Shown: positions 14,368 to 32,000 of the stretch, piece after piece
Layout: each line of letters begins with the position of its first letter
How positions within the stretch are numbered: the first letter of the stretch is position 1
Source: Flavobacteriaceae bacterium
GTDB taxonomy: Bacteria > Bacteroidota > Bacteroidia > Flavobacteriales > Flavobacteriaceae
Assembly (NCBI GenBank): GCA_965224465.1
Contig: OZ245049.1
Coordinates: 3,750,001-3,782,000 of the forward strand
Reading direction: 5' to 3'
Length of the DNA stretch: 32,000 nt
Translations under genes and position numbers: made by a program
The notes under the pieces: model-generated
Told to the model about the DNA's origin: nothing
Seen by the model: the letters and a program-made list of their open reading frames with translations, nothing else
The model's database searches: none

Positions 14368-14381
14368 AAGTTGATAGCGCA

Positions 14382-15494: not shown

Positions 15495-15934
15495 TACCAA
15501 TTACAATCCAAAATGACCGATATAAATAGTTTATTTTACGTACTAGCGTTGTTAAAAAATAGAACGATAGCTAAGGCTATCCTTAGATTTTCCGCCTAGC
15601 TATACTACCAATTACAATCCAAAATGACCGATATAAATAGTTTATTTTACGTACTAGCGTTGTTAAAAAATAGAACGATAGCTAAGGCTATCCTTAGATT
15701 TTCCGCCTAGCTATACTACCAATTAAAATCCAAAATGACCTATATAAATAGTTTATTTTACGTACTAGCGTTGTTAAAAAATAGAACGATAGCTAAGGCT
15801 ATCCTTAGATTTTTCGCCTAGCTATACTACCAATTAAAATCCAAAATGACCTATATAAATAGTTTATTTTACGTACTAGCGTTGTTAAAAAATAGAACGA
15901 TAGCTAAGGCTATCCTTAGATTTTTCGCCTAGCT
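15492..15934 (+). repeat. Tandem repeat, 4 x 111 bp (last unit truncated by ~4 nt)
   Basis: Units start at 15496, 15607, 15718 and 15829. Units 1 and 2 are identical, units 3 and 4 are identical, and the two pairs differ at 3 positions. The array starts at the hcp stop codon. Each unit carries a stem: atagcta(a)ggc, a 16-nt loop, gcctagctat. Confidence 0.9.
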
Positions 15935-16036
15935 AGAACAAAAAATAATTCTATTTCTAAACCGTCACTTGGAAATCTAATTGGTAGAACATAAAATAAT
16001 TCTATTTCTAAACCGTCTATTGGAAATGCATTTGGT
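15935..16036 (+). repeat. Tandem repeat, 2 x 51 bp
   Basis: agaacaaaaaataattctatttctaaaccgtcacttggaaatctaattggt is followed by agaacataaaataattctatttctaaaccgtctattggaaatgcatttggt. The taattggtag in unit 1 is the reverse complement of the ctaccaatta that opens units 2-4 of the 111-bp array (unit 1 opens ataccaatta). Confidence 0.85.
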
Positions 16037-16151: not shown

Positions 16152-16547
16152 ATGTCGTTTTTATCACAATTAACAATAGCCGATGATACCATGAATGTAT
16201 TGCGATGTTCTTTTAACTTTGAACAAGGTGCAGATGCTGCTGGTAAACCATCACAAAGACCAAGTGGAGGGAAACTCATAATTTTAATTGAATCTACCAG
16301 TAAAACAGATTTTTTGGAATGGATGATCTCTCCCAATATGACCAAAAATGGAGAAGTTGTTTTTTATAAAAGAGATAATATGTCTAGTTTAAAAACCATT
16401 ACTTTTAAAAATGCCTATTGTTTGAGCTATCAAGAAGATTTTGATGCAGAAGGAAACCAACCTTTAAAAACACGGATTGTTGTGTCTGCAAAAGAAATTA
16501 CAGTAAAGAATACTACCTTTTCCAATAACTGGTTTGATAGAGAATAA
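16152..16547 (+). CDS. hcp: Hcp/TssD paralogue
   Basis: 131 aa, collinear with 15108..15494 at roughly one-third identity. Shared pattern: MSF....L......NVL.CS......DA.G.PS....GGK....ES...T....WM. It ends 85 nt before the vgrG start. Confidence 0.75.
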   Translation: MSFLSQLTIADDTMNVLRCSFNFEQGADAAGKPSQRPSGGKLIILIESTSKTDFLEWMISPNMTKNGEVVFYKRDNMSSLKTITFKNAYCLSYQEDFDAEGNQPLKTRIVVSAKEITVKNTTFSNNWFDRE

Positions 16548-16632: not shown

Positions 16633-18447
16633 ATGGCGCTACAAAGCAACACAACTATAATTATTAAGAGACAAGAATTTTCAAGTTTTCAAAGCCTTAA
16701 CTTACATCAGGAAATTGATGCATCCCATTTGTTAACACTTACGTTTAGAATGGACACACTTGAAGATCTAGAAGAAGAACTTGCAACCAACAGTAAAGAG
16801 TTTTTAGGGGAAACAATTTCCTTGCAAACGATTCCTGCAAATGGTTTTGAAGACCGTTATGGCGAATTGACGTTTAAAGGTATTATTACCGAAATAAAAA
16901 TCATAAAAGGGCATGAGGTAAGTGATGGTGATAAAGTAGTTATAGAGGCAAAAAGCCCCGATTTTTTAACAAATGATGGTCCGCATTTTGCGTCTTACAA
17001 CGATGTTTCCCTCTCAGAAATTATTGATAGTTCGTTTGAAGGCTATGATACTTCAAAATTAGAAGTAGACATACGCCCTCAAAACAACCCTAGTTTGCAT
17101 TATTCGGTACAGCATAACGAAAGTGCTTTTACGTATGTAAGTAGACTTGCAGCACAATACGGAGAGTGGTTCTATTACGATGGCGCGAAATTAGTATTTG
17201 GAATGCCTGGTACCGAAGACTTAGAACTCACCTATGGATTTGATTTAGTAGAGTATCAGATAGGTTTGATACCTCAATCCAACAATTACAAAATATTTGC
17301 AAATGATTATTTAACCGATGAGGTACAAGAAAAATCAACAAGCGAAACCAATGCCGGTTTAAGAGGTTTTGGAGGCTTTGTTTCTGAAAAATCAAATGCC
17401 ATTTACAGAAAAGAAACAAAAATTTGGCACAATCTTTACAGCGATACAGAAGTACAACAGCGTTTAGATACAGCAGTGGAATTACAGAAAAAAGCGATTG
17501 ATGTAAAACAAGTAAAAGTACAGGGTGTTTGTGATAATCCAGGAGTAAAAATTGGGAGCGTAGTTGTAATAGATGGGAATAGATACAGAATTATAGAGGT
17601 TACACATAGCAATAATGAAATTGGCGATTATACAAATAAATTTGAAGGAATCACCGCAGATATAAACGCATATCCATACACCAATATAAACGCATTTCCA
17701 AAAAGCGAAACACAGGTAGCCACCGTAAAAGAAAATGCAGATCCCGATGGATTGGGGCGCATAAGAGTGCAATTTCCATGGCAAGTGGAGTATAGCGAGT
17801 TAACCCCATGGGTGCGCATTGTAACGCCACATGGCGGAGCCAATAAAGGATTCCATTTTATACCAGAAATTGACGAAGAGGTATTGGTGGGCTTTGAAGG
17901 GGGGAATGCAGAACATCCTTATATATTGGGGAGTTTGTACACGGGAAATGCCAAACCCGAAGCGTTTAAAACCGACACCAACGATGTTAAAATTATAAGA
18001 ACCCGCAGCGGACACACCATTGAACTAAATGATAAAGATGGTGAAGAAAAAATAAATATCTACGATAACGAAGGAAGTATCATCACTTTTGATACCCAAG
18101 CAAAATCCTTGTATATACAAGCTACGGAGAATATTGAATTCCAAGCAAAGAATATTAAATTAAAAGCGAGCGAGAATATAGAACTAAACGCCGATCAAGA
18201 AATTAAAATAGCAGCAACGGGTAACGCATTATTAGCATCAGAGGCAGTTATTAACATACAAGCAGAAAGTGATGTTAACGTAAGTGCGAGTTCAAATATA
18301 ACCATAGAAGCCACTAGTAAAGCAAATTTTAAAGGACAAAGTATTATTGTAGAAGGGCAAACATCAGCTGAATTTAATAGTGCCCAAACCAAAATTACGG
18401 GTAGTGGAATGATTGATGTTTCAGGAGGAATGATAAAAATAAATTAA
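16633..18447 (+). CDS. vgrG: VgrG (TssI) T6SS spike protein, complete
   Basis: 604 aa with the same OB-fold signature and C-terminal beta-helix repeats as 2..1708. Confidence 0.92.
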   Translation: MALQSNTTIIIKRQEFSSFQSLNLHQEIDASHLLTLTFRMDTLEDLEEELATNSKEFLGETISLQTIPANGFEDRYGELTFKGIITEIKIIKGHEVSDGDKVVIEAKSPDFLTNDGPHFASYNDVSLSEIIDSSFEGYDTSKLEVDIRPQNNPSLHYSVQHNESAFTYVSRLAAQYGEWFYYDGAKLVFGMPGTEDLELTYGFDLVEYQIGLIPQSNNYKIFANDYLTDEVQEKSTSETNAGLRGFGGFVSEKSNAIYRKETKIWHNLYSDTEVQQRLDTAVELQKKAIDVKQVKVQGVCDNPGVKIGSVVVIDGNRYRIIEVTHSNNEIGDYTNKFEGITADINAYPYTNINAFPKSETQVATVKENADPDGLGRIRVQFPWQVEYSELTPWVRIVTPHGGANKGFHFIPEIDEEVLVGFEGGNAEHPYILGSLYTGNAKPEAFKTDTNDVKIIRTRSGHTIELNDKDGEEKINIYDNEGSIITFDTQAKSLYIQATENIEFQAKNIKLKASENIELNADQEIKIAATGNALLASEAVINIQAESDVNVSASSNITIEATSKANFKGQSIIVEGQTSAEFNSAQTKITGSGMIDVSGGMIKIN

Positions 18448-18463
18448 AACAAATAAATAAATT

Positions 18464-19177
18464 ATGCCAGGACCAGCAGCAACAATATCACACATGCACA
18501 CATGCCCTATGTATAGTGGAACAAGCCCACATACTGGCGGCCCCATTATAGGCCCGGGAGTGCCAACAGTTTTAATAGGAGGAAAACCTGCCGCAGTAAT
18601 GGGGGATCAATGTACCTGTTCGGGACCACCCGATGTAATTGTAGAAGGTGTTTCTACCGTATTAATTGGTGGGAGACCCGCAGCTACTATGGGATCAAAA
18701 ACAGGTCATGGAGGCGAAGTAAGCATTGGAAATACTACCGTACTTATTGGTACAAGATGTAGTGCTCCTACCGCAATAATGCCAGTAAGCAAAATACCTT
18801 TTCCTAAAATATCTTTTAAAGATCGTATACTAACTTCTTTGTCGGGGAATTCATTGGCAGAAGCAGAAGCGAATCAAGCTGCTTTGAGAGAAGAAGAGGA
18901 AGGTGAGCCTGAAATATATGGTGTACAGTGGATTATAGGAGAACAAACAGTAAGAGAATCTCATGTGTTTTCTGAAGTAACTGTAAGGGCTAGGGTAAGA
19001 AATATTAATGATGGTGAAAAAATTACTTTTTCTATTAAAAAACCTCTTAGCACAACGGATAATAATGGAGTTAGTACTACTTCCGAAGAAGATATTATTG
19101 AGTTATCAGGTACAGTACAAGACAAAATAGTAGAGGTAACTTGGGAAATTGAAAAATCACAGGAAGAATCTAAATAA
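18464..19177 (+). CDS. PAAR-domain spike-tip protein with variable C-terminal extension
   Basis: PAAR motifs as in 1725..2417. Identity with that copy ends at 18910. The C-terminal ~88 aa are divergent. Confidence 0.9.
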   Translation: MPGPAATISHMHTCPMYSGTSPHTGGPIIGPGVPTVLIGGKPAAVMGDQCTCSGPPDVIVEGVSTVLIGGRPAATMGSKTGHGGEVSIGNTTVLIGTRCSAPTAIMPVSKIPFPKISFKDRILTSLSGNSLAEAEANQAALREEEEGEPEIYGVQWIIGEQTVRESHVFSEVTVRARVRNINDGEKITFSIKKPLSTTDNNGVSTTSEEDIIELSGTVQDKIVEVTWEIEKSQEESK

Positions 19178-19188: not shown

Positions 19189-22100
19189 ATGGTTACGGAA
19201 GAAGTAATAAAATACCAAGAGGAAGGAGCAAAATTAGTTGATAGTAAATACACCGTAGTTGTATCAGGTTCAGGCGTGGTGAATGAAGAAAGACCAGTAT
19301 TTAAAGCATTATTACCAGGTATTAGATTGCATTTTCTTAGATATGGTTTGTTTGATAGAAACAAGGATAACGTAAGTTCGATTCGTATTAAAGATGATAC
19401 GGACGAAAAATACACAGCATCAGATACTGATGTGTCCAATGGCGACCTACAAACCACCAAAGACTTTAGAGTAATGGCTACGCTACTTAAGAAAGGATAT
19501 GTATATATTATTAATGCGGAAAATAAAAATGACTATCATGAATTAAAAGTTGGTGAATTTGGAATGCTTTACCCTATAATTTGGAATACTAAAAATTTAG
19601 AAAGTGATGGTAGAACCCCTAAAGACTTTAGAGAGATTAATGGTGAAAAATCACATTACAAACTCATTTCTAAAACAAAAAAAGAAGGTGGTAAAAAATA
19701 TTGGATAGGCTACAGCCCTGTGCAATGGTCGTACGAATTACATAAAAAAATGCTCGCTGCATCTGATGAAGATAAAAAGCAGAAGCACATGATTTTAGTA
19801 GAATGTAAAGGTATAAAAAAAGGAGAGGAAGAAGCCAATGAATATATTTTACCTTACAATAAAATAAATATAGCCTTTTATGAAGGCGAAGACACAGATA
19901 GTTTAGTAAGAAAAACGTTAAATCAAATATTTGCCACTGAAAAAAAAGAAGAAAAACGTGGTAATAATGAGCTTCTTGAAGATATGTTTATTACTCTGCA
20001 TGATCCTGTAGGCTGCCTTCATGATGTTGGAGGTGTTTTAAGTGAAAAAACTGTAGAGTTTAGAGCTTTGGTAGAAGCTATTCAATCTGGAGAAACAGAG
20101 ATTGAAGCCAGAAGAAGATATGCCAAAACTCCTCCTGAATTTGCTCCTAACCCTAGTGATAATTACAAAAACATGTTCTCACTGGCTCTGGCTAGCTATA
20201 AAATGGTGTATAGTAGTAAAGAAAATACTCAAAAATTTGATGGTGCTGAGGTAGGGTATAATTTAACAAAACGTAATCAAACTAATTTTCCATATCAACC
20301 AAATTCTAGCGCTTCGTATGAGTTTACTATTAATTCTTTCTCAAAAAGTGATTATGGAGTGATAATTAAAAAAAAAACTAATAATTACGTAGCTAATGAG
20401 CATATTGGTAGTGGGTTGCACCGTTTAAAAGTAGAGGGAATATTAGGTGTGCACCCACGAAGAAAAAAGAGAGCCCAGTTAATTAAATATCGTGACATAG
20501 TAGGTGAATTTATACAATCAGACTATTTAAAGAAGGGATTGGCCTTTTATTCTGAAAATTGTTCTGCTTACAAAATTTTTGGTATTGAAGAATTGTATAA
20601 ATATATTTTACTTTTATATACAAATCCGTATGGTATTGACCGTCATTTACTTTTAAACAAAAAAAATGATCTTGAAAAAGACGTTTATTATAGCAGTGAC
20701 CAGTGGATTGATTGGATAAATAAACAAAAAAAATTAAAAACTCCAAACAATCCCAATGACCCTTTAGACGTCTTATTGGTTCACGAAATTTCTATTGGTC
20801 AAAAATTATTAAATAAAAAGGTAGAATTATCTAATAAATTAGCCGCTGTTTTTTCTGCGAAATTAACACTGCACTCATTAAGCGAGGATTTTTTTAAATC
20901 AAAAAAAATTACAAAGGCTATCACAGGAAAAACAAACTACCAAAAAATTATTAATGAAGGCTATACTGAAATGATAGACCAGCTAAATAAAATTACGGTA
21001 ATTACAAAAAAAGGAGGTATACCTGAAAAAGTGTTTAGTTTTGGCAATACTCACGCAATAGAAATAAATGCAAAAGTATTAGGTGTAGATTTTGATCCTA
21101 ATGTAGATGTTATTATAAGAGGTCCTGATGGGAAAAATATAAAAGAATTTACTACGGATTTAATAAAACACAATAAATTAAATGGAAATAAAGCCACTGT
21201 TGCTGGTGGTGCACATGTGTTAGAAGTTGGTGACAATGTAGAAAACATAAGCAAATATGAATATGTAAGAAATAAAATTAATAAAAACGGAGCCAAACGC
21301 TTTAATCAAAAAGCATATAATGCTTTAAATTCTCGTGGATTTACAGTTTTTTTAGCGGGTTTAGAAGTGATTAATTTTTACTATGCAACTTTGGGGCTGT
21401 ATGAATCAATACGAAAGGAGGAGTCAATACTAGTTAGAGCTAAAGAAGTTATTAACACGGCCGGAATTGGAGCCGAACTAGTAGAAGCTTCCTTCCGAGT
21501 ACAAAAAGCACATTATATTGCAATAGGTGAGGAGCTTGCAGAAAGTACAGCCAAAGGTCTATCAAATAAAATTGCAATAGCAGGTGCTATTGGTGGTATT
21601 ATTACTGCTGGTATGTGTATTACAGAAGCTGTTATAGCCTTTAATAAACGTGATGTTGATGCCAGTATTGCTTGGGGATTGGCAGGTGTTGCTTTTACAG
21701 TAAGTACTGCGGCAGGTATTTGGGGAGGAACTGTTTTTTTATTATCAGGGCCTGTAGGTTGGATTGCCTTAGGGATTGGTTTAATAGGAGTGGTTTTAGC
21801 AAATGTTTTTATAGACACAGACTTGGAATTCTATTTTAAACACTTTTTATTATCCGATCATAAAAAATTACCTATTGGTAATAACAGTCCTATGGCATAC
21901 AACCGTCTTGTCTATAAAAGTATTGAGACTTTAGTAGAGAGTGAGGATGACGACATTAAAAATAGCCTAATGTATCCTGAGGATGCTATTGCTAGTTTAC
22001 ACGATCTTACGGTATGTACCAGCATTAATTACTATGTAGAAAACATGAAAATGAAATTTGCAGGCAGACGTGGTAGAAGTACGGGGTATTATGTAAGTAG

Positions 22101-22542
22101 TTTTGGTATTACTATGAATTTTAATCATTTTTTATACGATGTAAATCAATTAGAAGCAAAAGGTATGATAGTGCGTCATACCTGGGTTAATAGTATTGGA
22201 AGTAATGCAGAAGAATTTAATTTAATATTAAAAGATGCCAAAATAATAAGCATGAAAAATGGACAACAACAACTTTTAGTAATTGTAGCAATACCTTACG
22301 AAAAAAGAAAATTAATAAAAGACGATAAAGATTTAGAAATGGTACTAGCCATACGTGTAAGAATTAATAAAGAGAAAAACCATTACTTCCCTTACAGACT
22401 ACTAGACAAACCTGAACGCTATATTGGTGCTAAATTTAAGTTATATAAAAACATATACACTAATTCAGGGGAAAATAACACAGATAATCAAAATTTAGTT
22501 TTTGATACCTTAGCGAACTTAAAACTTGATAAAACATGGTAG
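19189..22542 (+). CDS. Large T6SS effector, VasX-like N-region plus glycine-zipper TM helices (putative membrane-disrupting toxin)
   Basis: 1117 aa. Motifs: LPGIRLHFLRYGL, LKKGYVYIINAEN, YHELKV, YWIGYSPVQWS, ITLHDPVG. TM/Gly-rich region at about 21340-21815 (AIAGAIGGIITAGMCI..., AGVAFTVSTAAGIWGGTVFLLSGPVGWIALGIGLIGVVLANVFI). Confidence 0.6.
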   Translation: MVTEEVIKYQEEGAKLVDSKYTVVVSGSGVVNEERPVFKALLPGIRLHFLRYGLFDRNKDNVSSIRIKDDTDEKYTASDTDVSNGDLQTTKDFRVMATLLKKGYVYIINAENKNDYHELKVGEFGMLYPIIWNTKNLESDGRTPKDFREINGEKSHYKLISKTKKEGGKKYWIGYSPVQWSYELHKKMLAASDEDKKQKHMILVECKGIKKGEEEANEYILPYNKINIAFYEGEDTDSLVRKTLNQIFATEKKEEKRGNNELLEDMFITLHDPVGCLHDVGGVLSEKTVEFRALVEAIQSGETEIEARRRYAKTPPEFAPNPSDNYKNMFSLALASYKMVYSSKENTQKFDGAEVGYNLTKRNQTNFPYQPNSSASYEFTINSFSKSDYGVIIKKKTNNYVANEHIGSGLHRLKVEGILGVHPRRKKRAQLIKYRDIVGEFIQSDYLKKGLAFYSENCSAYKIFGIEELYKYILLLYTNPYGIDRHLLLNKKNDLEKDVYYSSDQWIDWINKQKKLKTPNNPNDPLDVLLVHEISIGQKLLNKKVELSNKLAAVFSAKLTLHSLSEDFFKSKKITKAITGKTNYQKIINEGYTEMIDQLNKITVITKKGGIPEKVFSFGNTHAIEINAKVLGVDFDPNVDVIIRGPDGKNIKEFTTDLIKHNKLNGNKATVAGGAHVLEVGDNVENISKYEYVRNKINKNGAKRFNQKAYNALNSRGFTVFLAGLEVINFYYATLGLYESIRKEESILVRAKEVINTAGIGAELVEASFRVQKAHYIAIGEELAESTAKGLSNKIAIAGAIGGIITAGMCITEAVIAFNKRDVDASIAWGLAGVAFTVSTAAGIWGGTVFLLSGPVGWIALGIGLIGVVLANVFIDTDLEFYFKHFLLSDHKKLPIGNNSPMAYNRLVYKSIETLVESEDDDIKNSLMYPEDAIASLHDLTVCTSINYYVENMKMKFAGRRGRSTGYYVSSFGITMNFNHFLYDVNQLEAKGMIVRHTWVNSIGSNAEEFNLILKDAKIISMKNGQQQLLVIVAIPYEKRKLIKDDKDLEMVLAIRVRINKEKNHYFPYRLLDKPERYIGAKFKLYKNIYTNSGENNTDNQNLVFDTLANLKLDKTW

Positions 22543-23324
22543 ATGCGACTTTTAATTACAAACGCCCTATAACCCATACCCAATACAAACATGGAGATAA
22601 AGAAACCAAAAAAGGAGGATTTAGCAGAATGCTGACTATGCGTATAACAGATGACATGCATGTTATGAAAAAAAGTGATGTAGGTACTAAAGGGGGCTTT
22701 CCTTTTGCTACAGATGTTTTTTTAAAATGCCCTGTTGTTCCTAAGATAATGCCTTTATGGTTGGGTAGCCTATTTTTATTTTTATTTTTATTTTTTATTT
22801 ATCTATATCTTACACCAAGTGACAAAGACAATGGCGATTATATATTATTTTATTTAATAACTTTTCTTTCTTTTCTAGGATTTTTGTTTTTTGCAACCTA
22901 TTATTTTACGATGCCAACAAAAGAGCTTATTTTTAATAGAGCGGACGGTTTGGTTACTTTTCCTGGGTTTATGTGGTGTAAAAACATAACGATGCCTATA
23001 CATAAGATAATATTTTCTATGTCATCACCTAGTATTCAGGGAGGAGGTGCTTATATGTTGCAAATTGTACGACCAGACAGGACGTATTCCTTGTATTTAT
23101 GTACAAGGGGCTATAGTTGTTATGAAGATTTATCATCTTATTTATGGTATATGGATAAGAATAGACCATTACCTACGGGGGAAGGTTTTGATCCGTGTCG
23201 TTTACAAGATTTTGAACGTAGAAAATCTGAGGGTTTCCCTAAGCCATTATTTCCTTGTAGTTTTGAAACTCCAGAAGCTACGCTTGAACAACAGGCAGAA
23301 CGTGAGCGTATTGGCGGTTGGTAA
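22536..23324 (+). CDS. Putative 2-TM membrane immunity protein (WYMDKNRPLP family)
   Basis: The ATG overlaps the effector stop (ATGGTAG). 262 aa with two TM helices and the conserved C-terminal motif. Confidence 0.65.
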   Translation: MVDATFNYKRPITHTQYKHGDKETKKGGFSRMLTMRITDDMHVMKKSDVGTKGGFPFATDVFLKCPVVPKIMPLWLGSLFLFLFLFFIYLYLTPSDKDNGDYILFYLITFLSFLGFLFFATYYFTMPTKELIFNRADGLVTFPGFMWCKNITMPIHKIIFSMSSPSIQGGGAYMLQIVRPDRTYSLYLCTRGYSCYEDLSSYLWYMDKNRPLPTGEGFDPCRLQDFERRKSEGFPKPLFPCSFETPEATLEQQAERERIGGW

Positions 23325-23338
23325 AAGTTGATAGCGCA

Positions 23339-23433
23339 AAGCAATGCATTCGCGCGGATTTAAAATCCGCGCCAGTAACTGAGTGTCTGCTAGGAATGTT
23401 TCGCGGAAAGGTTTACGGAAAAAGGTGATTTAT
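23339..23433 (+). repeat. Conserved 95-nt junction element, copy 3 (palindrome 23352-23372)
   Basis: Same element as 6309-6403 and 14382-14476. Confidence 0.85.
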
Positions 23434-26361
23434 GTATCATTAGAAAATACAGATGATGTTTTTGAGTTTTTAAGTAATGAAAAAAAAGATGGAAAAGAAG
23501 AACAATATTTTACAAATATTATAGCAGGTACAAAATTAAAAACAAGCCTATCTTACAAAGTAGATATTAAAGCAAATACACCCATAAAAGTACTTAAAAT
23601 TAAAGGAGATTACGCACAAATAAAAGTAACATCTATTACTGCAACCTTAGTTAGAGATACCGATATTAATGATAACGTAAAACCATTTAATAGCAATAAA
23701 CTTTATACTATCAAAAATCTTACTACGGTTAATAAAGCATTTAATGGTCTTGCAACTAAAGATGCCACATTCAATACAAAACAAGTAAAAGCACCAAGAA
23801 ATTGGAGAACAAATTTAAACAGAACTGTTACCTTTTACCCAAATGGCTATGGTAAAGTGATTTGGATAGAAAAAACATCTATTTCCAAAATAGCAGAAAA
23901 AATAAAAAAAGAAGCAGGTATAATTACCTCAATTATTCCTGACTATTTTTTAACAGAAGAACAAAAATACGAAACAGTTGAAAGAGAAGCCAAAACAGGA
24001 GAAAAAACTACATTATATGTAGATGTATGTAAGGCATATATCGAAGTCCCTTTTAGAACCGATGTAGAAGAAGTAACTGTAGAAAAAGAAAAAGTAGTTG
24101 ACTTACGTAAATTTAAAAAAGCAAAAGACGATAAAAAAGACCTTTGGTATAAAGTAGTATTAGATGATACAACTAGTAGCCAATGTGTAGCAGTAAAAGG
24201 CTGGGTAAAAGAAAAGGATCTTGACAAATTTAGCGCTTACGATTGGCAAAAATTTGGTTTTAAAGATCTAGACGCAGGTAATGAATACATATACTCTGTA
24301 AAAGACTTATGTAAGGCAACAGATAGTACCGATTTTGTAACCGAAATTTGGGATAAAACAATAGATACAGATGGCAATAAAGTATTAGATATACTAGAGC
24401 TTATTAGAGCCTTTAGTAAACCAGAAATAGCACAAAAACTATCTCGTTTGGTATGTAAGCACAAAAATGAATGGTCTTATACTATGGACGAAATAAAACC
24501 AGAAGTAAAAGAACTCTATGATTTTGGTATACAATTAGAAGAAGTTACAGCCGAAAAACAAAAACTAGAAACCGAAAGGGATGATAGTTTAGCCAAAATG
24601 GAAACCAAAATAGAAAATTTAATGTGGTGGGATGAGGCAAGTAAAAAAACCTACACAGCACCCGTAAAAGAAGAAGATAAAACAAAAACGAGTAGCACCA
24701 AAAGACCTTCTATGTTGCCAGAAGGTACAGTGGTAGAAGAAATACCACAAAAAGATGTTGTACCTTTAGACAATAAAACAACAGCAGTTAAACCAGATGC
24801 TAAACCAACGAAAGATAGTATACCAACGACAAGTACAACCGCTGCTCCAACACCAGAAACTAAAGTAGAAGAAAAAGAAGTGCCACCAGAACGTATGTTT
24901 CCAAGTACAAATATAGTACATCACTTTCATCCTATTGCTTGGGTGGAGCAGATGAGGTTGATATTTGAAAAACAGACGGGAGAGTGCTATTGTAATAGAG
25001 ATTTTACTGTGGAAGAAGTTACAAGAATTATCAAAAGACTAAGAAAAAATGAAAACCTTAGTGGCAATTCTATATTAAGTCATGACAACTGTAAGATAAC
25101 CAATAAATCATTTGATAAACTTACAGAAGAACTAAATAAAACCATCGCTAAATACAAAATATCACAATGTATACAAAAAATACACTTTATAACTCAACTT
25201 TATCATGAATCTGCCAGATTTACTACTGGTCTAGAATTTGATAATGGAAATTATTACAATCCTAATGGAGGACATCCTGAAGCAAAAAACAATGGTAATA
25301 TTCAAAGTGGAGATGGGCCACGGTATAAGGGTCGAGGATTTATGCAATTGACATGGAGAAATACACAAATAAAATACTTAAAATATGCTTCTAAAAATAC
25401 AGAAGGGAAATTAAAAGGGAAAACAGATTCTGAATTGGAGTTACGAAGTAATAACTATCAAAAATATATTTCTGATGATTTAGGATATGCTATGGATTCT
25501 GCAGGTTGGTTTTGGAGTAATTATAAAAAAATAGAGTTTAGTAAAAAAGAAAATAAAAATAGATATGCACATATAATAAACAAACCTTTAAATGAGGTCG
25601 CTCTAAATGAAGATAAATATTTGAGTTTAATTTCCAAATTTATCAATGGAGGTAAAAAAGGGATTAAGAAGAGAGCAAATTATTATCAAATATTAAAAAG
25701 CGTCTTTAGATATGAGGTAGATTGTATTAATAATATTGCCTCATCAAAAGAAGAAGTAAATCAATCCTTACCACCTTGGTTGAAAGTTGCTTTTGAAGAA
25801 TACAATACTCATTTAGGATATATAGAAGAAGAGAAAACTTTAAAAAATCGCATAGAAAAAGTATATTTTGGCTCAACCCAAAATAAAAGTTTGAAATACA
25901 CGGATCCATGGTGTGCTGCTTTTATAAATTATTGTTATTTAAAAGGAGGTCTATCATATAAAAATTTAACAGGGATTCAAGTTAGGGCTTTTGAATGGGG
26001 ACCGTTTAATAATAAATTTTTAATTACCAAAAGAAAAAATATTGGAGGTTGGAAAGAAGGAGAAGATTATGGTAAACCTTTTCTTGGAGCATTAGCAATA
26101 TACTCTGGAAGTCATGTAGGTTTTGTTGTTGGTAAAAATACTAGAGGCAAAATAGTTCTGTTAGGAGGTAACCAAAATGGAGTTATTGGTAATACTAATG
26201 TTGGTGGAGATGAAAGTGTTTGTTTCTCATCATACCCAGCAAATAAAATACTTTTTTACATGAAGCCTAAGGGTTTTATTGTTCCTCCTGAAATAGATGA
26301 AGAAAATTTACCTATTATAAATATTAGTAACCCAACAGAAACATTTGCCTCACTTAGATAA
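23383..26361 (+). CDS. Modular PG-hydrolase T6SS effector (GH19-like muramidase + TIGR02594/NlpC-P60-like peptidase C-terminus), intact
   Basis: 992 aa. The GTG start directly follows an in-frame TGA, and the first in-frame ATG is codon 368. SH3b-like segments ([10 protein letters not shown]...[12 protein letters not shown]), coiled-coil, PT-rich linker and [14 protein letters not shown]19 motifs: HFITQLYHESARF...GPRYKGRGFMQLTWRNTQ. TIGR02594-like motifs: PPWLKVAFEEY...DPWCAAFINYC...SHVGFVVGKN...LLGGNQNG. Confidence 0.85.
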   Translation: MSARNVSRKGLRKKVIYVSLENTDDVFEFLSNEKKDGKEEQYFTNIIAGTKLKTSLSYKVDIKANTPIKVLKIKGDYAQIKVTSITATLVRDTDINDNVKPFNSNKLYTIKNLTTVNKAFNGLATKDATFNTKQVKAPRNWRTNLNRTVTFYPNGYGKVIWIEKTSISKIAEKIKKEAGIITSIIPDYFLTEEQKYETVEREAKTGEKTTLYVDVCKAYIEVPFRTDVEEVTVEKEKVVDLRKFKKAKDDKKDLWYKVVLDDTTSSQCVAVKGWVKEKDLDKFSAYDWQKFGFKDLDAGNEYIYSVKDLCKATDSTDFVTEIWDKTIDTDGNKVLDILELIRAFSKPEIAQKLSRLVCKHKNEWSYTMDEIKPEVKELYDFGIQLEEVTAEKQKLETERDDSLAKMETKIENLMWWDEASKKTYTAPVKEEDKTKTSSTKRPSMLPEGTVVEEIPQKDVVPLDNKTTAVKPDAKPTKDSIPTTSTTAAPTPETKVEEKEVPPERMFPSTNIVHHFHPIAWVEQMRLIFEKQTGECYCNRDFTVEEVTRIIKRLRKNENLSGNSILSHDNCKITNKSFDKLTEELNKTIAKYKISQCIQKIHFITQLYHESARFTTGLEFDNGNYYNPNGGHPEAKNNGNIQSGDGPRYKGRGFMQLTWRNTQIKYLKYASKNTEGKLKGKTDSELELRSNNYQKYISDDLGYAMDSAGWFWSNYKKIEFSKKENKNRYAHIINKPLNEVALNEDKYLSLISKFINGGKKGIKKRANYYQILKSVFRYEVDCINNIASSKEEVNQSLPPWLKVAFEEYNTHLGYIEEEKTLKNRIEKVYFGSTQNKSLKYTDPWCAAFINYCYLKGGLSYKNLTGIQVRAFEWGPFNNKFLITKRKNIGGWKEGEDYGKPFLGALAIYSGSHVGFVVGKNTRGKIVLLGGNQNGVIGNTNVGGDESVCFSSYPANKILFYMKPKGFIVPPEIDEENLPIINISNPTETFASLR

Positions 26362-26365: not shown

Positions 26366-27376
26366 ATGAAAATAAAGATATTCTTATTAGCACTGCTAAT
26401 TATCATTTTCTCATGTAAAGAAAATAAAAAAGAAGTACATATTCAAGAAAAAAATGTAGATGTATTTAGATTAGAAATAATCAAATCAAAAAAAAATAAA
26501 AAATTTGGGTATGCAGAGAAAACGGTTTTTAAACTTTTAAATAATAATAAAAACATTGACAGTTTATCTGTAATAATACCCTATTCTGATTGTGAAAATA
26601 ATGAAACTATATGTGGTATTAATTATTTGAATGGCTCATTCAAAGTCTCAGATTTAAACAATGATTCTTTTAAAGAAATTCAATATGCTTACCACCATTA
26701 TATAAAATCAGAACAGTTGCCTAAAAGTTTAAAAATAATATTATTTGACACAAAAGATAATAAGAGGTATTTTATTGATGGTTTAGGTGTAAATAAATTT
26801 GATGAATTAACAATTGATAATCCAATAGGACAGATAATAGAAATAAGTAAAAAAACCCCAAAAATTTTCTTTAAGGCAATGAAAAACAAATGGATTAGTT
26901 ATTCTTTTGAACATAAATTACCAAAAATAAAAGAAGAAAAAAAAGTTCAAATAATTGTTATAGAAGAAAGTTCAAATAATAAATCTAATAATTTCGAATA
27001 TGAATTATTACCAAATATTAAGACAGTGAAATTAATTGGTGGAGATAAGGAAAATATAGAAATATTATTAAAAAACAATGAAATATATAAATTTGAAAAT
27101 CCTATTTTTCAAATAGATTATCACGAAATAGAACTTATAAAGAACAAGATTGTTAGATTAAAAAACATGGACAATAAACGTAGTTATATTGAAACATTTT
27201 GGTTTTTTGATGATAAAAAAAAATCATTAATTTTATTTAAATCATATGCAGAATCATATGATTTTGGTAAAATAACTAAATATAAACTTAATAATATTAA
27301 TTACGATATAAAAACAATTAATAGTGATGCGTTTTTTGATGAGATTTATAATTCAGATAATGAAATAACAGATTAA
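26366..27376 (+). CDS. Lipoprotein, putative periplasmic immunity protein
   Basis: The ATG lies 4 nt after the effector stop (the track start 26345 is an upstream TTG overlapping the effector). Signal plus lipobox MKIKIFLLALLIIIFSC|KENKK. Confidence 0.7.
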   Translation: MKIKIFLLALLIIIFSCKENKKEVHIQEKNVDVFRLEIIKSKKNKKFGYAEKTVFKLLNNNKNIDSLSVIIPYSDCENNETICGINYLNGSFKVSDLNNDSFKEIQYAYHHYIKSEQLPKSLKIILFDTKDNKRYFIDGLGVNKFDELTIDNPIGQIIEISKKTPKIFFKAMKNKWISYSFEHKLPKIKEEKKVQIIVIEESSNNKSNNFEYELLPNIKTVKLIGGDKENIEILLKNNEIYKFENPIFQIDYHEIELIKNKIVRLKNMDNKRSYIETFWFFDDKKKSLILFKSYAESYDFGKITKYKLNNINYDIKTINSDAFFDEIYNSDNEITD

Positions 27377-27519
27377 CATTAGAGGGGATTTAATATCTAA
27401 TTATGGAAGTCGGAAAGATGTGGCAGTAAATATTAGGATACACTAGAGCTTATTAGAGCGTTTAGTAAACCGGAAATAGTACAAAAACTATCTCGTTTGG
27501 TATGTAAGCACAAAAATGA

Positions 27520-29160
27520 ATGGTCTATACTATGGACGAAATAAAACCAGAAGTAAAAGAACTCTATGATTTTGGTATACAATTAGAAGAAGTTACAGCC
27601 GAAAAACAAAAACTAGAAACCGAAAGGGATGATAGTTTAGCCAAAATGGAAACTAAAATAGAAAATTTAATGTGGTGGGATGAGGCAAGTAAAAAAACCT
27701 ACACAGCACCCATAAAAGAAGAAGATAAGACAAAAACGAGTAGCACCAAAAGACCTTCTATGTTGCCAGAAGGTACAGTGGTAGAAGAAAAACCACAAAA
27801 AGATGTTGTACCTTTATACAATAAAACAACATTAGTTAAACCAGATGCTAAACCAACGGAAGATAGTATACCAACGACAAGTACAACCGCTGCTCCAGCA
27901 CCAGAAACTAAAGTAGAAGAAAAAGAAGTGCCACCAAAACGTATGTTTCCTAAAAGCAATATAGTACATCACTTTCATCCAATTGCTTGGGTGGAGCAGA
28001 TGAGGTTGATATTTGGGGAAGGTGGTGAAATTTCTGAAATCTGTTATGCAGAAGCAAGAGTTAAGGCATTTATGAGAATGTTGCGTATTGGGGAAGGATC
28101 TGTTGGTGAAAAAGGTTATTATACTTCTTATGGAGGTCGAACGATGACTAATTTAAGTACTCGTCAAGAAACTGTATATGAGGGCTCTAGTGCTTCAGGA
28201 GGGTACCAATTTATAAATAAAACTTATTGGGGAATGCAAGGGTTTACAGTTGTGAAAAATAAAAAAGTAGGAGACGCTGATCCTAAAAAAGACCTTATAA
28301 CAAGATATAAAATACCAGATTACGAACCATTATCTCAAGATAAGTTGTGTATTATCTATATGAAACATTACGGAAAAGGGCTAATAGAGTTACTTGCTGA
28401 AGGGCAAATAGAAAAAGCTATTAGAACAAAAGCGAGTAAAATTTGGGCTAGTTTACCTAATGAAGGTATACCTTTCGAACATAAAAAAAGTAGATACCTA
28501 ATGCCAGATGGTCTTAGGTATCAACCAGCAGAACATATGAGTGATAGCTGTTTGATGAATTACCGTAAGTTTTATAGAGAAGAAGTAAAAGGCATAACTG
28601 ACTTATATTTACAACCAGGTTTTTTAAAAGAATTTGGTTTTAATTGTTGTAAAGATGATGATACTTTATCTAATAATGAGGGTGGGTGGCCTGTTAGGAA
28701 ATCTCATAATGGTCATAAAAGAAGATTTGGAAGTCCTTTTGGACCTAGAAATGGAGGTCAACATCGTGGAATTGATATGAATTTTGGTTCTGGATATGAT
28801 GATTATGGTGCGCCTGTAATAGCTACACATGATGGCGTTGTGAGAAAAGCACAAGAAAATGATGATAAAACTGAAGGAGCAGGAAGAAGAGTAACGATAC
28901 AGTCTGAAGATGGGACTTTTCAAACAAAATATTTTCATTTAAGTGTTTTTTTAGTAGATATAGGAGATAAAGTAAAAAAGGGACAAATTATTGGTGAAAT
29001 AGGTTCTTCTGCTTTTGCTAAAGAAAATGGAACTGATTGTCACTTGCATTATGAAATACATAAAAAAAATTCAGCAGGAAAAATGGAGCATTATAATCCT
29101 ACCGAAGGGAAAGCTAACACAGGAGAAAACATAGTAGATCCACAAACTTGGATTAAATAA
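27520..29160 (+). CDS. Orphan PG-hydrolase toxin module (GH104 lambda-type lytic transglycosylase + M23 peptidase)
   Basis: Homology to the full-length gene starts about 27410. A 1-nt deletion at about 27528 relative to the other copies (tggtctatact vs tggtcttatact) puts a TGA just before ATG 27520. The MDEIKPE...[12 protein letters not shown] arm is conserved. Lambda-R-like motifs: RVKAFMRMLRIGEG, SASGGYQFINKTYW, IWASLPNEG..FEHKK. M23 motifs: HRGIDMNFG...YFHLS...GTDCHLHYEI. Confidence 0.8.
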   Translation: MVYTMDEIKPEVKELYDFGIQLEEVTAEKQKLETERDDSLAKMETKIENLMWWDEASKKTYTAPIKEEDKTKTSSTKRPSMLPEGTVVEEKPQKDVVPLYNKTTLVKPDAKPTEDSIPTTSTTAAPAPETKVEEKEVPPKRMFPKSNIVHHFHPIAWVEQMRLIFGEGGEISEICYAEARVKAFMRMLRIGEGSVGEKGYYTSYGGRTMTNLSTRQETVYEGSSASGGYQFINKTYWGMQGFTVVKNKKVGDADPKKDLITRYKIPDYEPLSQDKLCIIYMKHYGKGLIELLAEGQIEKAIRTKASKIWASLPNEGIPFEHKKSRYLMPDGLRYQPAEHMSDSCLMNYRKFYREEVKGITDLYLQPGFLKEFGFNCCKDDDTLSNNEGGWPVRKSHNGHKRRFGSPFGPRNGGQHRGIDMNFGSGYDDYGAPVIATHDGVVRKAQENDDKTEGAGRRVTIQSEDGTFQTKYFHLSVFLVDIGDKVKKGQIIGEIGSSAFAKENGTDCHLHYEIHKKNSAGKMEHYNPTEGKANTGENIVDPQTWIK

Positions 29161-29189
29161 AAACAATAATAAAATCTAAATTAAAAATC

Positions 29190-30116
29190 ATGTCTATTTT
29201 TATAAATCGAATTATTATAATTTGCACAATTATATGTTTATTTTCTTGTAAAATTAATGAGAAAGAAAAAAATGAAGGTGTCAAAATTCAATCAGATTTA
29301 CAAACATCTTCTAAAGTTACTTCAGAAAAAAAAACTAATACAGAATTTGTAACATACCTGTATTCAAAGAGAAAGTCGGATGGGGAAGGTGAAGAACACA
29401 CAATGCAAGAATTAAAAATACAATGGAATGATAGTCTTAATATAAAATTTAAGATAGTCATGAAAAACCTGATGTGTGAAATGAAAGATAAAGGAGAAGC
29501 TTCACTAATAGGAAAAAACACTTATCAAGTAAAAAATAATTCAGTTATAAAACAATTAAAATTTGATAATAATAAGAATGAAGTAGAGTTAGTTTGTAGC
29601 TATGGTAAGTATCAAGGTGAATGTGATCCTATGCAGCAATTGTTAATGACAACAACTTCTTTTACTGGTAAAAGTGAGTTGAGAAAAGATTTTTTGGAAA
29701 AGGAAGAAGCTATTACATATGAAACTATTTATGAGCTTAAAAAGAGGAAGTTTTCAACAGATTGTTCAAGTGATGATTATGTTTTCTTTTTAGTTGCTGG
29801 ACAGTTTATAACAAAAAATATTTTTTTTAATTCACGACTTAAAAGAATTAATGAGACAGAGTATTATATTTATTTTTCGCCACCATTATTAGCCCCTGTA
29901 CCAAGTAGTTTAAATGATGCCGCTTCTTTTTCTTTGAGTAAACCAATAGGTAAGATTGTTAATAATACAGAAGGTCAAATACAGTTTGAATGGTATGGTT
30001 TTTATAATAGAAAAACAAAAAAAAGAGAGTTTAAGCAAAACCCTTTTACAAATAAAATAGAGAATGGTTCTATTGTTTTAAAATGGTGTGATATAGGTAA
30101 TGTCGATGGTTTTTAA
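29190..30116 (+). CDS. Lipoprotein, putative periplasmic immunity protein
   Basis: Signal plus lipobox MSIFINRIIIICTIICLFSC|KINEKEK. It starts 29 nt after the toxin stop. Confidence 0.7.
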   Translation: MSIFINRIIIICTIICLFSCKINEKEKNEGVKIQSDLQTSSKVTSEKKTNTEFVTYLYSKRKSDGEGEEHTMQELKIQWNDSLNIKFKIVMKNLMCEMKDKGEASLIGKNTYQVKNNSVIKQLKFDNNKNEVELVCSYGKYQGECDPMQQLLMTTTSFTGKSELRKDFLEKEEAITYETIYELKKRKFSTDCSSDDYVFFLVAGQFITKNIFFNSRLKRINETEYYIYFSPPLLAPVPSSLNDAASFSLSKPIGKIVNNTEGQIQFEWYGFYNRKTKKREFKQNPFTNKIENGSIVLKWCDIGNVDGF

Positions 30117-30228
30117 TCCCCGATCCCGCCAGTTCAATGTTTTTAAGTTAAGAATTTAATCATTTAAAAATTAGTATTTTAAATTTACTTTAATCAAGTA
30201 TACATAAATAGCACAAAAACTATCTCGT

Positions 30229-31986
30229 TTGGTATGTAAGCACAAAAATGAATGGTCTTATACTATGGACGAAATAAAACCAGAAGTAAAAGAACGCTGT
30301 GATTTTGGTATACAATTAGAAGAAGTTACAGCCGAAAAACAAAAACTAGAAACCGAAAGGGATGATAGTTTAGCCAAAATGGAAACCAAAATAGAAAATT
30401 TAATGTGGTGGGATGAGGCAAGTAAAAAAACCTACACAGCACCCATAAAAGAAGAAGATAAAACAAAAACGAGTAGCACCAAAAGACCTTCTATGTTGCC
30501 AGAAGGTACAGTGGTAGAAGAAATACCACAAAAAGATGTTGTACCTTTAGACAATAAAACAAAAGCAGTTAAACCAGATGCTAAACCAACGGAAGATAGT
30601 ATACAAACGACAAGTACAACCGCTGCTCCAGCACCAGAAACTAAAGTAGAAGAAAAAGAAGTACCACCAAAACGTATGTTTCCTAAAAGCAATATAGTAC
30701 ATCACTTTCATCCAATTGCTTGGGTGGAGCAGATGAGACTTGTTTTTGGAGAGGGTGGCGGAGATTGTGAATCTCTTATTTGGGGAAATAAAGTAAGTTG
30801 TGAATTTAGAAAACGAGTAATTCAAATATCTAAACGTCTTGAATGCGATCCTAATCATTTAATGGGAGCTATGGCATTAGAAACTGGAGGGAAATTTGAC
30901 CCTAAGGTCGATAATGGTTTAGGTAAAGACAAAGATGGTATTGGTTACATCGGATTAATTCAGCTTGGAAATGATGCTATAAAAGATATGAATAGGAATT
31001 ATTTTCTACATAGGGCAAAAATTAAAAAGAAAGATTTAAGAGCAATGTCTGCCGTAGAGCAATTATGCTATGTAGAATATTATTTAGCCAAACATAAAGG
31101 TAAACTTAAAACCTTAGCAGATTTTTATTTAGCAATACTTTGGCCAGATGCAGTAGGTCACGGTAATGAACCTAATTATATTGTTTTCGATGATGAGGCT
31201 AGTGGTAATAAGAAAAGAGCATATTACTCAAACCCTACGTTTTTTAGAGAAGATGATGAGTTTAAGAAAAATAGTAAGGGAAAAATATACGAAAGACATG
31301 GTAAAACAGGAGGTAAAACGTATGTATGGGAAATAGCTGAAGCCATACAAGAATGGTATGATAAGGGAGTGCCTGAAAAAAACACTTCTAGTAACTGTAC
31401 TTGTAATACAAATTGCTCATGTTGTAAATGTATTGATTTAACAAATAAGGTTATTTGGATAAGTCAGTTTAACAAAAGTGAACGTAGAAGTAATGGCACT
31501 ATGAAAACAGATGGATGCTGGAGAACTTCCCAAAAATTATTAATTGATGCAGGCTTAAGTAAAACTTCGGGTTATAAAACAGGGATGATTATAACAGCAT
31601 TAGAGGATGATGCTCATACTTCTTTATCTTTGACAAAGAGAGTAAAAGATGGTGTCGATTATATTGACTCTGAACTAGAAAAAGGAAATCCTGTCTTAGT
31701 TGGTCTAAATCATACCATTAACTATAGACGCAATGGTAAAATAATTAATGCAGACTCCTCACTAGGAGACCCAGGAACTACAGATCATTATGTGGTTGTC
31801 ATAGGTAGAGGATGTGAAAAAAATAAAGTGTATTATCGTTTTTATGAAGTAGGTACAAGTTGGGCACATTATGGGCAAAACTCTAGAAATAAATTATTTT
31901 TAGGAAGTGACTTTTCTTTAAAGGGAAGTCCTGGAAATAATAAAGAAAAAAAATATACAGTAAGTCAAGTACGAAAAAATCAATAA
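30229..31986 (+). CDS. Orphan PG-hydrolase toxin module (SLT-like transglycosylase + papain-fold Cys peptidase/amidase)
   Basis: Homology to the full-length gene starts at about 30206, directly after an in-frame TAA. The first ATG is 30265 (MDEIKPE); the track start is TTG. The arm is conserved up to [15 protein letters not shown]-like motif: HLMGAMALETGGKFDP...GYIGLIQLG. Candidate Cys/His pair: TDGCWRTSQ ... GTTDHYVVVIGRG. Confidence 0.75.
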   Translation: MVCKHKNEWSYTMDEIKPEVKERCDFGIQLEEVTAEKQKLETERDDSLAKMETKIENLMWWDEASKKTYTAPIKEEDKTKTSSTKRPSMLPEGTVVEEIPQKDVVPLDNKTKAVKPDAKPTEDSIQTTSTTAAPAPETKVEEKEVPPKRMFPKSNIVHHFHPIAWVEQMRLVFGEGGGDCESLIWGNKVSCEFRKRVIQISKRLECDPNHLMGAMALETGGKFDPKVDNGLGKDKDGIGYIGLIQLGNDAIKDMNRNYFLHRAKIKKKDLRAMSAVEQLCYVEYYLAKHKGKLKTLADFYLAILWPDAVGHGNEPNYIVFDDEASGNKKRAYYSNPTFFREDDEFKKNSKGKIYERHGKTGGKTYVWEIAEAIQEWYDKGVPEKNTSSNCTCNTNCSCCKCIDLTNKVIWISQFNKSERRSNGTMKTDGCWRTSQKLLIDAGLSKTSGYKTGMIITALEDDAHTSLSLTKRVKDGVDYIDSELEKGNPVLVGLNHTINYRRNGKIINADSSLGDPGTTDHYVVVIGRGCEKNKVYYRFYEVGTSWAHYGQNSRNKLFLGSDFSLKGSPGNNKEKKYTVSQVRKNQ

Positions 31987-31990
31987 CTAA

Positions 31991-32000
31991 ATGAAAAAAA
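31991..32000 (+). CDS. Start of next ORF (ATGAAAAAAA..., MKK), probably the cognate lipoprotein immunity gene; cut by window
   Basis: The ATG lies 4 nt after the toxin stop, the same spacing as at 26366. Only 10 nt are visible. Confidence 0.3.

Follow-up and report, generated by a model that had tools for sequence, protein, structure and literature searches.

The 3′ end of the 32,000-nucleotide window analysed here (positions 3,750,001 to 3,782,000 of contig OZ245049.1, assembly GCA_965224465.1, from a Flavobacteriaceae bacterium) is occupied by two 5′-truncated gene modules, which are probably orphan toxin/immunity cassettes of a polymorphic peptidoglycan (PG) effector locus linked to a type VI secretion system (T6SS). 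It is proposed that such cassettes would arise by serial displacement and could be re-attached via the repeats that they share with a longer effector gene upstream, termed here the main gene. An orphan-cassette reading of this kind, with homologous recombination as the route of exchange, had been put forward in a preliminary description of the region, and it appears to be borne out by signs of cross-genus transfer, by mosaic paralogs and by other strains and assemblies. The features that carry the argument are these:

23383-26361, + strand: main PG effector gene, short-N form, 992 amino acids (aa), GTG start (P0147)
24372-24967, + strand: conserved pre-toxin segment of the main gene, common to the orphans; junction motif encoded at 24916-24954
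26366-27376, + strand: predicted lipoprotein of 336 aa (start ATG 26366), candidate immunity protein of the main toxin, lipobox IFSC (P0148)
27421-28015, + strand: retained conserved segment of orphan 1; junction motif at 27964-28002
27520-29160, + strand: orphan 1 open reading frame (ORF), 546 aa (P0007), with linker, junction, lambda-lysozyme-like domain and Peptidase_M23
29190-30116, + strand: putative immunity lipoprotein of orphan 1, 308 aa, lipobox LFSC
30203-30737, + strand: retained conserved segment of orphan 2; junction motif at 30697-30735
30229-31986, + strand: orphan 2 ORF, 585 aa from TTG (P0005), lytic-transglycosylase-like plus C39-like cysteine peptidase
31991-32000, + strand: start of the next ORF, ATGAAAAAAA, 10 nt, ending at the window edge (sequence only)

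Repeats in the window were mapped by self-BLASTN, and their boundaries were placed by a four-way alignment in which the fourth bearer of the conserved segment is the PG effector of module A, the first of two paralogous T6SS spike islands on the + strand (the main gene lies behind the second, module B). Segment 24372-24967 of the main gene recurs at 27421-28015 (96.0% identity, 597 columns), 24422-24956 recurs at 30203-30737 (97.0%, 535 columns), and the orphans match each other between 27474-28047 and 30206-30779 (95.3%), all with E = 0. Both approaches agree that two modules start abruptly inside the conserved region of the main gene, downstream of the longer copy and in the same orientation, and the 0.5-0.6 kb of homology described earlier corresponds to stumps of 595 and 535 bp with 96-97% identity. 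The 5′ ends of the two orphans fall at different points of the conserved region, and similarity is lost within a few bases past GTGGAGCAGATGAG (VEQM) in all four window copies. Non-homologous C-termini are joined, in other words, to a conserved region at a fixed junction, as is characteristic of a polymorphic toxin locus.

The upstream stops reported for both modules were found again, with one refinement. Orphan 2 is closed by TAA 30205-30207; in orphan 1, TGA 27517-27519 stands immediately 5′ of ATG 27520 and is in frame only because the stump carries a 1-nt deletion near 27526 (TT>T; column 148 of the four-way alignment), while in the frame of the upstream homologous stretch the closing codon is TAG 27434-27436. 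The in-frame ATG of the MDEIKPE sequence is present, as had been noted, at 27532 and 30265. Runs of perfect identity between the main segment and the orphans reach 128 bp (orphan 1) and 145 bp (orphan 2), lengths that are ample as a substrate for RecA recombination, and by its sequence 24372-24967 qualifies as a direct-repeat substrate for homologous recombination.

Past the junction, where no DNA similarity is detectable, the three toxins are unrelated, each a different two-enzyme cell-wall hydrolase, so that the description of a distinct toxin in each module holds at the level of domain content. The main gene encodes an endolysin/GH19-like domain plus CHAP; orphan 1, a lambda-lysozyme-like domain plus Peptidase_M23 (E = 3e-19); and orphan 2, a lytic-transglycosylase-like domain (9udh, E = 1e-19) plus a C39-like cysteine peptidase (9jdd/9jg8, E = 3e-27). 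A lipoprotein gene had been ascribed to every module. Behind the main gene, ORF 26366-27376 starts with a signal peptide and lipobox (...LLIIIFSC|KENKK) and shares 24% identity (E = 5e-15) with the ORF behind a homologous GH19/CHAP toxin in Aquimarina longa. For orphan 1 a lipoprotein-type ORF was likewise found (29190-30116, N-terminus ...IICLFSC|KINEK), and 243 of its 308 aa are identical to positions 11617-12543 of a locus in Olleya sediminilitoris (L005), the inter-genus homology ending at the stop codon. For orphan 2 the window holds only the 10-nt ORF start at 31991, which is presumably that of its immunity gene.

The junction is the strongest feature common to the protein family: 13 residues with the consensus VYHFHPIAFVEQM, present in 85 proteins and kept in relatives of only 31-37% identity, after which unrelated C-termini of roughly 170-630 aa follow. 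Comparison of the conserved 528 aa with 5.8 billion proteins gave 13 matches, all on one contig of 5,241,564 bp, three of them being window ORFs (P0005, orphan 2; P0007, orphan 1; P0009, the toxin part of module A), and HMMER, run exhaustively over 1.84 billion cluster representatives, returned only 129 relatives. At the protein level the genome encodes at least 16 ORFs with the motif, together with three N-terminal fragments (P0012, P0014, P0145). The relatives of the source organism belong to the marine Flavobacteriaceae (Olleya, Aquimarina, Cellulophaga and metagenome-assembled genomes). In 52 members scanned with Pfam, only cell-wall domains were recognised past the junction, namely M23 (9), CHAP (7), GH19 (4), phage lysozyme (3), pesticin (2) and YkuD (2), together with GH108, SLT and PG_binding_3. 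The carrier itself matches no Pfam or NCBIfam model and has no sequence relative in the PDB, except for SH3_3 in the long forms. The main gene product is laid out as a beta-rich carrier, a helical region, a disordered Lys/Glu/Thr/Pro linker, the junction and the toxin; an AlphaFold model of residues 1-539 (mean predicted local distance difference test score, pLDDT, 80.9) places the beta-rich part at 20-300, helices at 317-434, the 55-residue disordered linker at 435-489 and a confident strand-helix at the junction (511-528), and a fold search with the carrier model gave no PDB match at E < 0.001. A carrier family with a fixed junction motif and only cell-wall toxins is new, the principle being known from Rhs and contact-dependent growth inhibition (CDI) systems; no published account was found of this carrier family, of orphan T6SS cassettes in Flavobacteriaceae, of a T6SS in Aquimarina or of Kordia effectors of such kind. 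As a separate observation, EF-hand Pfam models are matched by 4 of the 52 members, and a plausible Ca-binding-like loop (DTDGNKVLD) is encoded in the window at ~24340-24380, just upstream of the orphan 1 break point.

Placement of the effector genes within an hcp-vgrG-PAAR island marks their products as candidate T6SS cargo effectors. TssD (PF17642) is found twice in the window (E = 2e-52, 3e-47), the VgrG proteins have OB and GPD domains, a PAAR_motif is recognised by Pfam with E = 2e-20 and by NCBIfam as well, both databases also detect VasX_N, and long-form relatives of the main gene lie directly behind PAAR in loci L002, L005 and L007. From the Hcp type and the relatives of the source organism, we infer that the system is a Bacteroidota-type T6SS.

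The clearest sign of cassette movement comes from Olleya. Window positions 27943-30117 align with 10379-12544 of locus L005, there too an orphan cassette, at 84.7% identity over 2176 bp, against 68% for VgrG, and the match begins ~60 nt ahead of the junction, spans the toxin and ends with the stop codon of the immunity gene. Synonymous divergence (dS) between the two loci is 0.37 for the toxin and 0.39 for the immunity gene, compared with 2.0 for VgrG, 1.3 for PAAR and 1.25 for the part of the orphan 1 ORF ahead of the junction. On the evidence of this divergence, junction, toxin and immunity gene have evidently moved between genera as a block. For the orphan 1 toxin and its immunity gene, the ratio of non-synonymous to synonymous change (dN/dS, omega) is 0.30 and 0.33, respectively, and the orphan 1 cassette has therefore been under purifying selection.

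Within the same genome, two paralogs on the same contig, P0015 (944 aa) and P0016 (905 aa), bear the orphan 2 and orphan 1 toxins, respectively, on a complete short-N carrier. Relative to orphan 2, P0015 has 15 differing positions in the 170-aa conserved part and 2 in the 415-aa toxin; relative to orphan 1, P0016 has 8 up to three residues past the junction and 1 in the rest. Both comparisons rest on explicit difference counts; a global identity matrix with free end gaps gave a spurious 100% for unrelated toxins, and only its P0005/P0015 and P0007/P0016 values were used. The variants in the conserved part of the same-genome copies are mosaic and mutually incompatible.

Comparison with other strains, which had been suggested as a test, gives the same picture. 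In L007, an ENA contig of 78.7 kb, PAAR and carrier are 97-99% identical to those of the window, the terminal toxin is different, and a single orphan carries yet another cassette, its pre-junction homology being confined to 83 bp. In Aquimarina longa, two orphans accompany one long gene; Olleya has one long gene, three orphans and a remnant; and in the JGI metagenome Ga0256840 many contigs are found, with up to four cassettes in 5.4 kb and a small ORF behind each, often with a lipobox. Carrier and toxin occur in different combinations among loci and strains, as recombinational exchange would produce. Ahead of the junction the orphans keep anything from 4-17 aa to 213 aa of the conserved part; their 5′ breaks are scattered and their 3′ end is fixed at the junction. 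Homology-anchored insertion with an illegitimate far end, as proposed for Rhs and for the auxiliary clusters of Vibrio cholerae (PMC5361080), would be expected to leave this pattern. In L008 (JGI Ga0256840_1005666, 4171-8695), a VgrG island has a PAAR fused to a 1075-aa toxin protein, then an immunity-like ORF and then a PG-effector stump with 186 pre-junction residues, the start of which (...RAFNKPEIA) nearly coincides with that of orphan 1; the family can therefore be present as an orphan with no full-length copy in cis.

The model that we favour can be stated as follows. The region would be the tail of a polymorphic-toxin locus on a Bacteroidota-type T6SS island (Hcp/TssD, VgrG, PAAR), the effector being built of a conserved carrier, a disordered linker, a fixed junction and an interchangeable PG-hydrolase toxin, with a small ORF behind. 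An incoming cassette would cross over within the conserved pre-toxin DNA and join illegitimately at its 3′ end, so that the resident toxin-immunity pair would be shoved downstream with a conserved stump of variable length, and repetition of this event would amount to serial displacement. The resulting direct repeats of 0.5-0.6 kb would permit RecA-type deletion, duplication or gene conversion, by which a stored toxin could be re-attached to the carrier here or, possibly mainly, to paralogs at other VgrG islands. The toxins are predicted to act in the periplasm, where the lipoproteins would neutralise them, and retained immunity genes may guard against kin still firing the old toxins. The 992-aa head gene would itself be an earlier product of the same displacement process, in which a PAAR tail, a VasX_N effector, its immunity gene and a 111-bp end may have taken the place of the old PAAR tail and of some 336 codons at the 5′ end of the PG effector.

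This last step concerns the one part of the preliminary description that finds no support, namely that the head gene is intact and full length. Of the 27 representatives that align as far as the N-terminus of the main gene product, 23 have 250-390 further residues ahead of it, and this extra region of the long forms is M23-like (WHGGIHxEG ... FYSLYxHL ... HxEVF) and contains SH3. Judged against this family norm, the main gene is without about 340 N-terminal residues, and the same genome does encode a long form (P0017, 1047 aa). Homology to the long forms begins at 23449, that is, at codon 23, equivalent to L007 residue 337; codon 368 is the first ATG of the ORF, and in every copy the first ATG is that of MDEIKPE. 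Codons 1-22 derive from a short repeated element, and the features compared here are:

23339-23449, + strand: 111-bp junction element, supplying codons 1-22 of the main ORF
PAAR genes compared: window 1725-2417 and 18464-19177; L007 4873-5334; L005 3487-3978; L002 6638-7102

The 111-bp element contains a GC-rich hairpin, GCGCGGAT-TTAAA-ATCCGCGC (fold of -22.1 kcal/mol, z = -2.56), followed by TGA and then GTG, with TTG instead in the module A copy. Its three copies (6309-6419, 14382-14492, 23339-23449) are 93-97% identical, each lies behind a VasX-type immunity gene, and each gives the first 22 codons of the next ORF, which is a PG effector twice and a 99-aa ORF once; unrelated sequence comes after the 14382-14492 copy. 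It may mark the end of a module, act as a terminator or be a scar of recombination.

A comparable break is seen in the PAAR genes. Those ahead of long-form PG effectors (L007, L005, L002) have a common short tail, ...GYLSxFxxS[IF], while the window PAARs depart from that of L007 at residue 115 into another tail, ~75 aa longer, ahead of a VasX_N effector. The C-terminal tail of PAAR and the kind of effector downstream co-vary, and the PG genes of the window are without the N-terminal domain that accompanies the short tail. Homology between modules A and B ends within the PAAR tail (2299/19038), where both VasX_N effectors also diverge. The main gene is full length only relative to the orphans. 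On the simplest reading of these sequences, the VasX_N module replaced the 5′ part of the head gene, and the array would then consist of three nested truncations rather than of one intact gene and two orphans. L008 would fit the same takeover pattern with a different intruder. Among the short-N copies, three (main gene, P0015, P0016) are intact; another two, that of module A and P0002, have a break at an A-tract. In module A, the PG effector is split by a frameshift at A-tract 6874-6881 (A8), at ...ATAAAAAAAATTAGAT; L007 reads KKKLD in frame at this position, and P0002, a paralog from the same genome, looks like an A9 version. Slipped-strand on/off switching, decay and a homopolymer error of long reads are all possible explanations of the frameshift.

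Several points weigh against orphan cassettes that are stored and re-attached. Recombination between the copies is inferred from sequence mosaics, and no recombinant molecule or population heterogeneity was observed. A crossover upstream of ~27526 in orphan 1 would give a dead fusion because of the frameshift in its stump; an in-frame fusion needs a crossover downstream of that position, for which ~490 of the 595 bp qualify. No Bacteroidetes -7 box (TAnnTTTG) was found on the + strand upstream of either orphan, the motif occurring at chance frequency. Within the window's own conserved segments dN/dS is 0.4-0.8, which fits relaxed constraint but is not decisive, as it is calculated from 16-29 substitutions only. 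The head gene is seen to be without the N-terminal domain and the matched PAAR tail, and a swap onto it may consequently give no secreted effector. Finally, immunity function, lipoprotein processing and secretion are all putative.

Some of these points would also be explained if the truncated copies, and possibly the head gene, were inert relics, leftovers of past displacement that do not act as toxin donors and of which at most the immunity genes are kept. In favour of this stand the lack of a -7 box and of any evident promoter of their own, the frameshift of orphan 1, the omega of 0.4-0.8 in the shared segments, a head gene with neither N-terminal domain nor ATG start, and two short-N paralogs broken at the A-tract; the L008 stump, behind an unrelated effector and with no full-length gene in cis, also agrees with this explanation. 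What makes it unlikely is that no stop interrupts the toxin ORFs (381 and 415 codons) in spite of DNA with 68% A+T, that the orphan 1 toxin has evolved with an omega of 0.30 since its split from the Olleya copy, likewise an orphan, and that near-identical toxins are present on longer carriers in the same genome, which means that cassettes have been re-joined or copied recently. It has also been considered that the orphans are short effectors in their own right, translated from the internal MDEIKPE ATG as helix-linker-toxin proteins and delivered, or acting, alone. The in-frame ATGs at 27532 and 30265 would allow this, and the same ATG is the first in every copy, the 992-aa gene included, but the consensus of the family does not have this Met. 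Counts of sigma-70 promoters and terminators are at the level of shuffled sequence, and terminator-like sites lie only on the minus strand inside the repeats, but neither this nor the missing -7 box shows the orphans to be silent; with no + strand terminator-like site between the genes, read-through transcription is possible, and in Salmonella internal promoters can express orphan Rhs modules (PMC7043789). The products, however, would lack the whole beta-rich carrier, and stumps ranging from 4-17 aa to 213 aa suit random truncation rather than a defined start. Independent effector function of the orphans is unlikely, and the explanation as a whole appears distinctly improbable.

Two further explanations can be given very little credence. 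Local tandem duplication of an effector-immunity pair followed by divergence, with no horizontal input of cassettes, finds a precedent in the large recent duplications that self-BLASTN detects in the window (1-2299 with 16740-19038; 6309-7923 with 23339-24955), but it would have to produce toxins that differ in their domains and share no DNA similarity past the junction next to stumps that are 96-97% identical, and it leaves the orphan 1 cassette far closer to its Olleya counterpart than the host genes are. An assembly artefact, in which mis-joined repeats pasted the C-termini of full-length genes from elsewhere, is scarcely credible. The preliminary description had named complete N-terminal regions elsewhere in the genome as the mark of such an artefact; longer genes with the same toxins do exist (P0015, P0016), and two frameshifts in homopolymers, A8 at 6874-6881 and TT>T near 27526, are of a kind that long reads typically introduce. 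P0015 and P0016 are nonetheless not evidence of misassembly, because they are distinct paralogs, called together with the orphans on the same 5,241,564-bp contig and differing from them at 18 and 9 alignment positions. Moreover, the 5′ breaks adjoin unique ends of immunity genes, and the same layout is present in independent assemblies (Aquimarina longa, Olleya sediminilitoris, the ENA contig and JGI contigs).

A tentative extension of the cassette model, for which the odds are against rather than in favour, would make the locus a self-contained and hitherto undescribed polymorphic effector system of marine Flavobacteriaceae, with the competition placed at the spike tip. The short PAAR tail ...GYLSxFxxS[IF] would dock the M23-like N-terminal domain, the VYHFHPIAFVEQM strand-helix would be functional as a junction, marking a boundary of processing or of folding besides anchoring recombination, and rival modules, of the VasX_N type or PAAR-toxin fusions, would capture the PAAR tip by replacing both tail and N-terminal domain. 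The nested stack of 5′-truncated PG effectors would then record successive takeovers and might serve as a genome-wide toxin library for the long-form genes that remain.

Orphan cassettes have been described mostly in other systems, of which Rhs is the closest. Orphan rhs-CT/rhsI modules, in which CT denotes the C-terminal toxin part, are known from E. coli, Salmonella Typhimurium and the bee-gut bacteria Snodgrassella and Gilliamella (PMC3150448, PMC3967940, PMC5727410). Like these loci, the one in the window is T6SS-linked, combines a conserved 5′ part with a variable C-terminal toxin demarcated by a short conserved motif, has a candidate immunity gene behind the main toxin and orphan 1, where Rhs loci have the cognate one, and is followed by 5′-truncated copies that keep core sequence. 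In Rhs loci, recombination between core repeats can deploy an orphan, and a parallel is proposed here; deployment of an orphan Rhs toxin by Salmonella clones under selection has been seen in an evolution experiment (PMC3967940). Unlike Rhs toxins, which are cytoplasmic nucleases, NADases and others, those recognised in this family are without exception directed at the cell wall, and many of them fuse two enzymes; the carrier is beta-rich and SH3-like, then helical, then a disordered linker; the immunity proteins are predicted lipoproteins; and the host T6SS is of the Bacteroidota type. Membership of the Rhs family was rejected, as no copy has an RHS/YD match in Pfam or NCBIfam, a PxxxxDPxGL motif or a shell. 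The CdiA-CT/CdiI systems (PMC3150448) offer a similar likeness, with a fixed demarcation motif (VENN there, VYHFHPIAFVEQM here) and tandem orphan CT/immunity pairs that keep a piece of the upstream conserved sequence. A CdiA/CdiB locus was rejected as well, since Pfam detects no two-partner secretion (TPS) domain, filamentous haemagglutinin (FHA) repeats or CdiB and the translations contain no VENN.

For the auxiliary T6SS clusters of Vibrio cholerae, sequential displacement by homology-facilitated illegitimate recombination has been proposed, with older modules pushed 3′ (PMC5361080). There, as here, T6SS effector-immunity modules are acquired horizontally, but mostly only immunity genes survive, whereas in the window the complete toxin-coding part and a carrier stump are kept. 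The acquired interbacterial defence (AID) islands of Bacteroidales (mentioned in PMC10470768), recombinase-associated collections of immunity genes that lack the toxins, belong to the same phylum and likewise accumulate immunity genes against T6SS toxins. An orphan immunity array of the AID or Vibrio type was rejected because complete toxin ORFs are kept, and among the ORFs scanned in the window there is no recombinase, the only mobility gene being an IS66 fragment. The locus agrees with the general definition of polymorphic toxin systems, in which a multi-domain secreted protein has its C-terminal toxin replaced from stand-alone cassettes and an immunity gene lies behind (PMC3482391); PG hydrolases, a minor toxin class in that survey, are the only class in this family.

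Orphan toxin cassettes are textbook knowledge for Rhs and CDI and are not known to have been described for Bacteroidota-type T6SS effectors of marine Flavobacteriaceae. The locus offers a natural system for the diversification of two-enzyme cell-wall toxins predicted to act in the periplasm, and it lets the competition of effector modules for one spike tip be studied. The long-N and short-N forms, with their co-varying PAAR tails, open a route to the loading requirements of cargo effectors, and the invariant junction motif is a handle for mining PG hydrolases and lipoprotein inhibitors in marine metagenomes. That motif, and the apparent matching of PAAR tail and N-terminal domain with module takeover, are the aspects most worth following up.

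The remaining genes of the two islands, in a window with a G+C content of 30-35%, are the following:

11-1708, + strand: module A VgrG
1725-2417, + strand: module A PAAR
2423-5392, + strand: module A VasX_N-type effector
5383-6252, + strand: module A immunity gene of the VasX_N-type effector
6353-9302, + strand: module A PG effector, with a Phage_lysozyme + PG_binding_1 toxin
9253-10254, + strand: module A lipoprotein gene
15108-15494 and 16152-16547, + strand: two module B Hcp genes
16633-18447, + strand: module B VgrG
18464-19177, + strand: module B PAAR
19189-22542, + strand: module B VasX_N effector, 1117 aa
22536-23324, + strand: module B immunity gene of the VasX_N effector

The VasX_N effectors, too, appear from their sequence to have orphan cassettes, and to form a second orphan series. 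Positions 12669-14492 hold the last 287 codons of the 1117-aa VasX_N effector and its immunity gene, without the 5′ part, at 95% identity to 21618-23449, and are preceded by an immunity-like ORF (11926-12621) that shares the C-terminal motif WYMDKNRPLP. Directly past the module A lipoprotein gene, a 40-codon fragment (10256-10376) resembles the CHAP/TIGR02594 motif (..DEIAWCGSFVNWV..) and looks like the remains of another cassette. Behind it, the stretch 10659-11434 has a 199-bp tandem duplication and then an IS66 transposase gene, truncated and on the minus strand, at 10913-11434; L007 has this IS66, too (99%), past its array.

An antisense ORF of 86 codons is present on the minus strand in three copies of the linker-coding segment (7619-7879, 27699-27959, 30432-30692), most likely as a side effect of what the + strand encodes there, a sequence rich in Lys, Glu, Thr and Pro. 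An Rfam scan of the whole window gave no match, and this includes four tandem copies, 99% identical, of a 111-nt non-coding unit that runs from the base after the first hcp stop (15495-15935). Partial matches to this unit (56-80 nt, 88-91%) occur in L007 at 1028-1105 and 4551-4606, upstream of PAAR.

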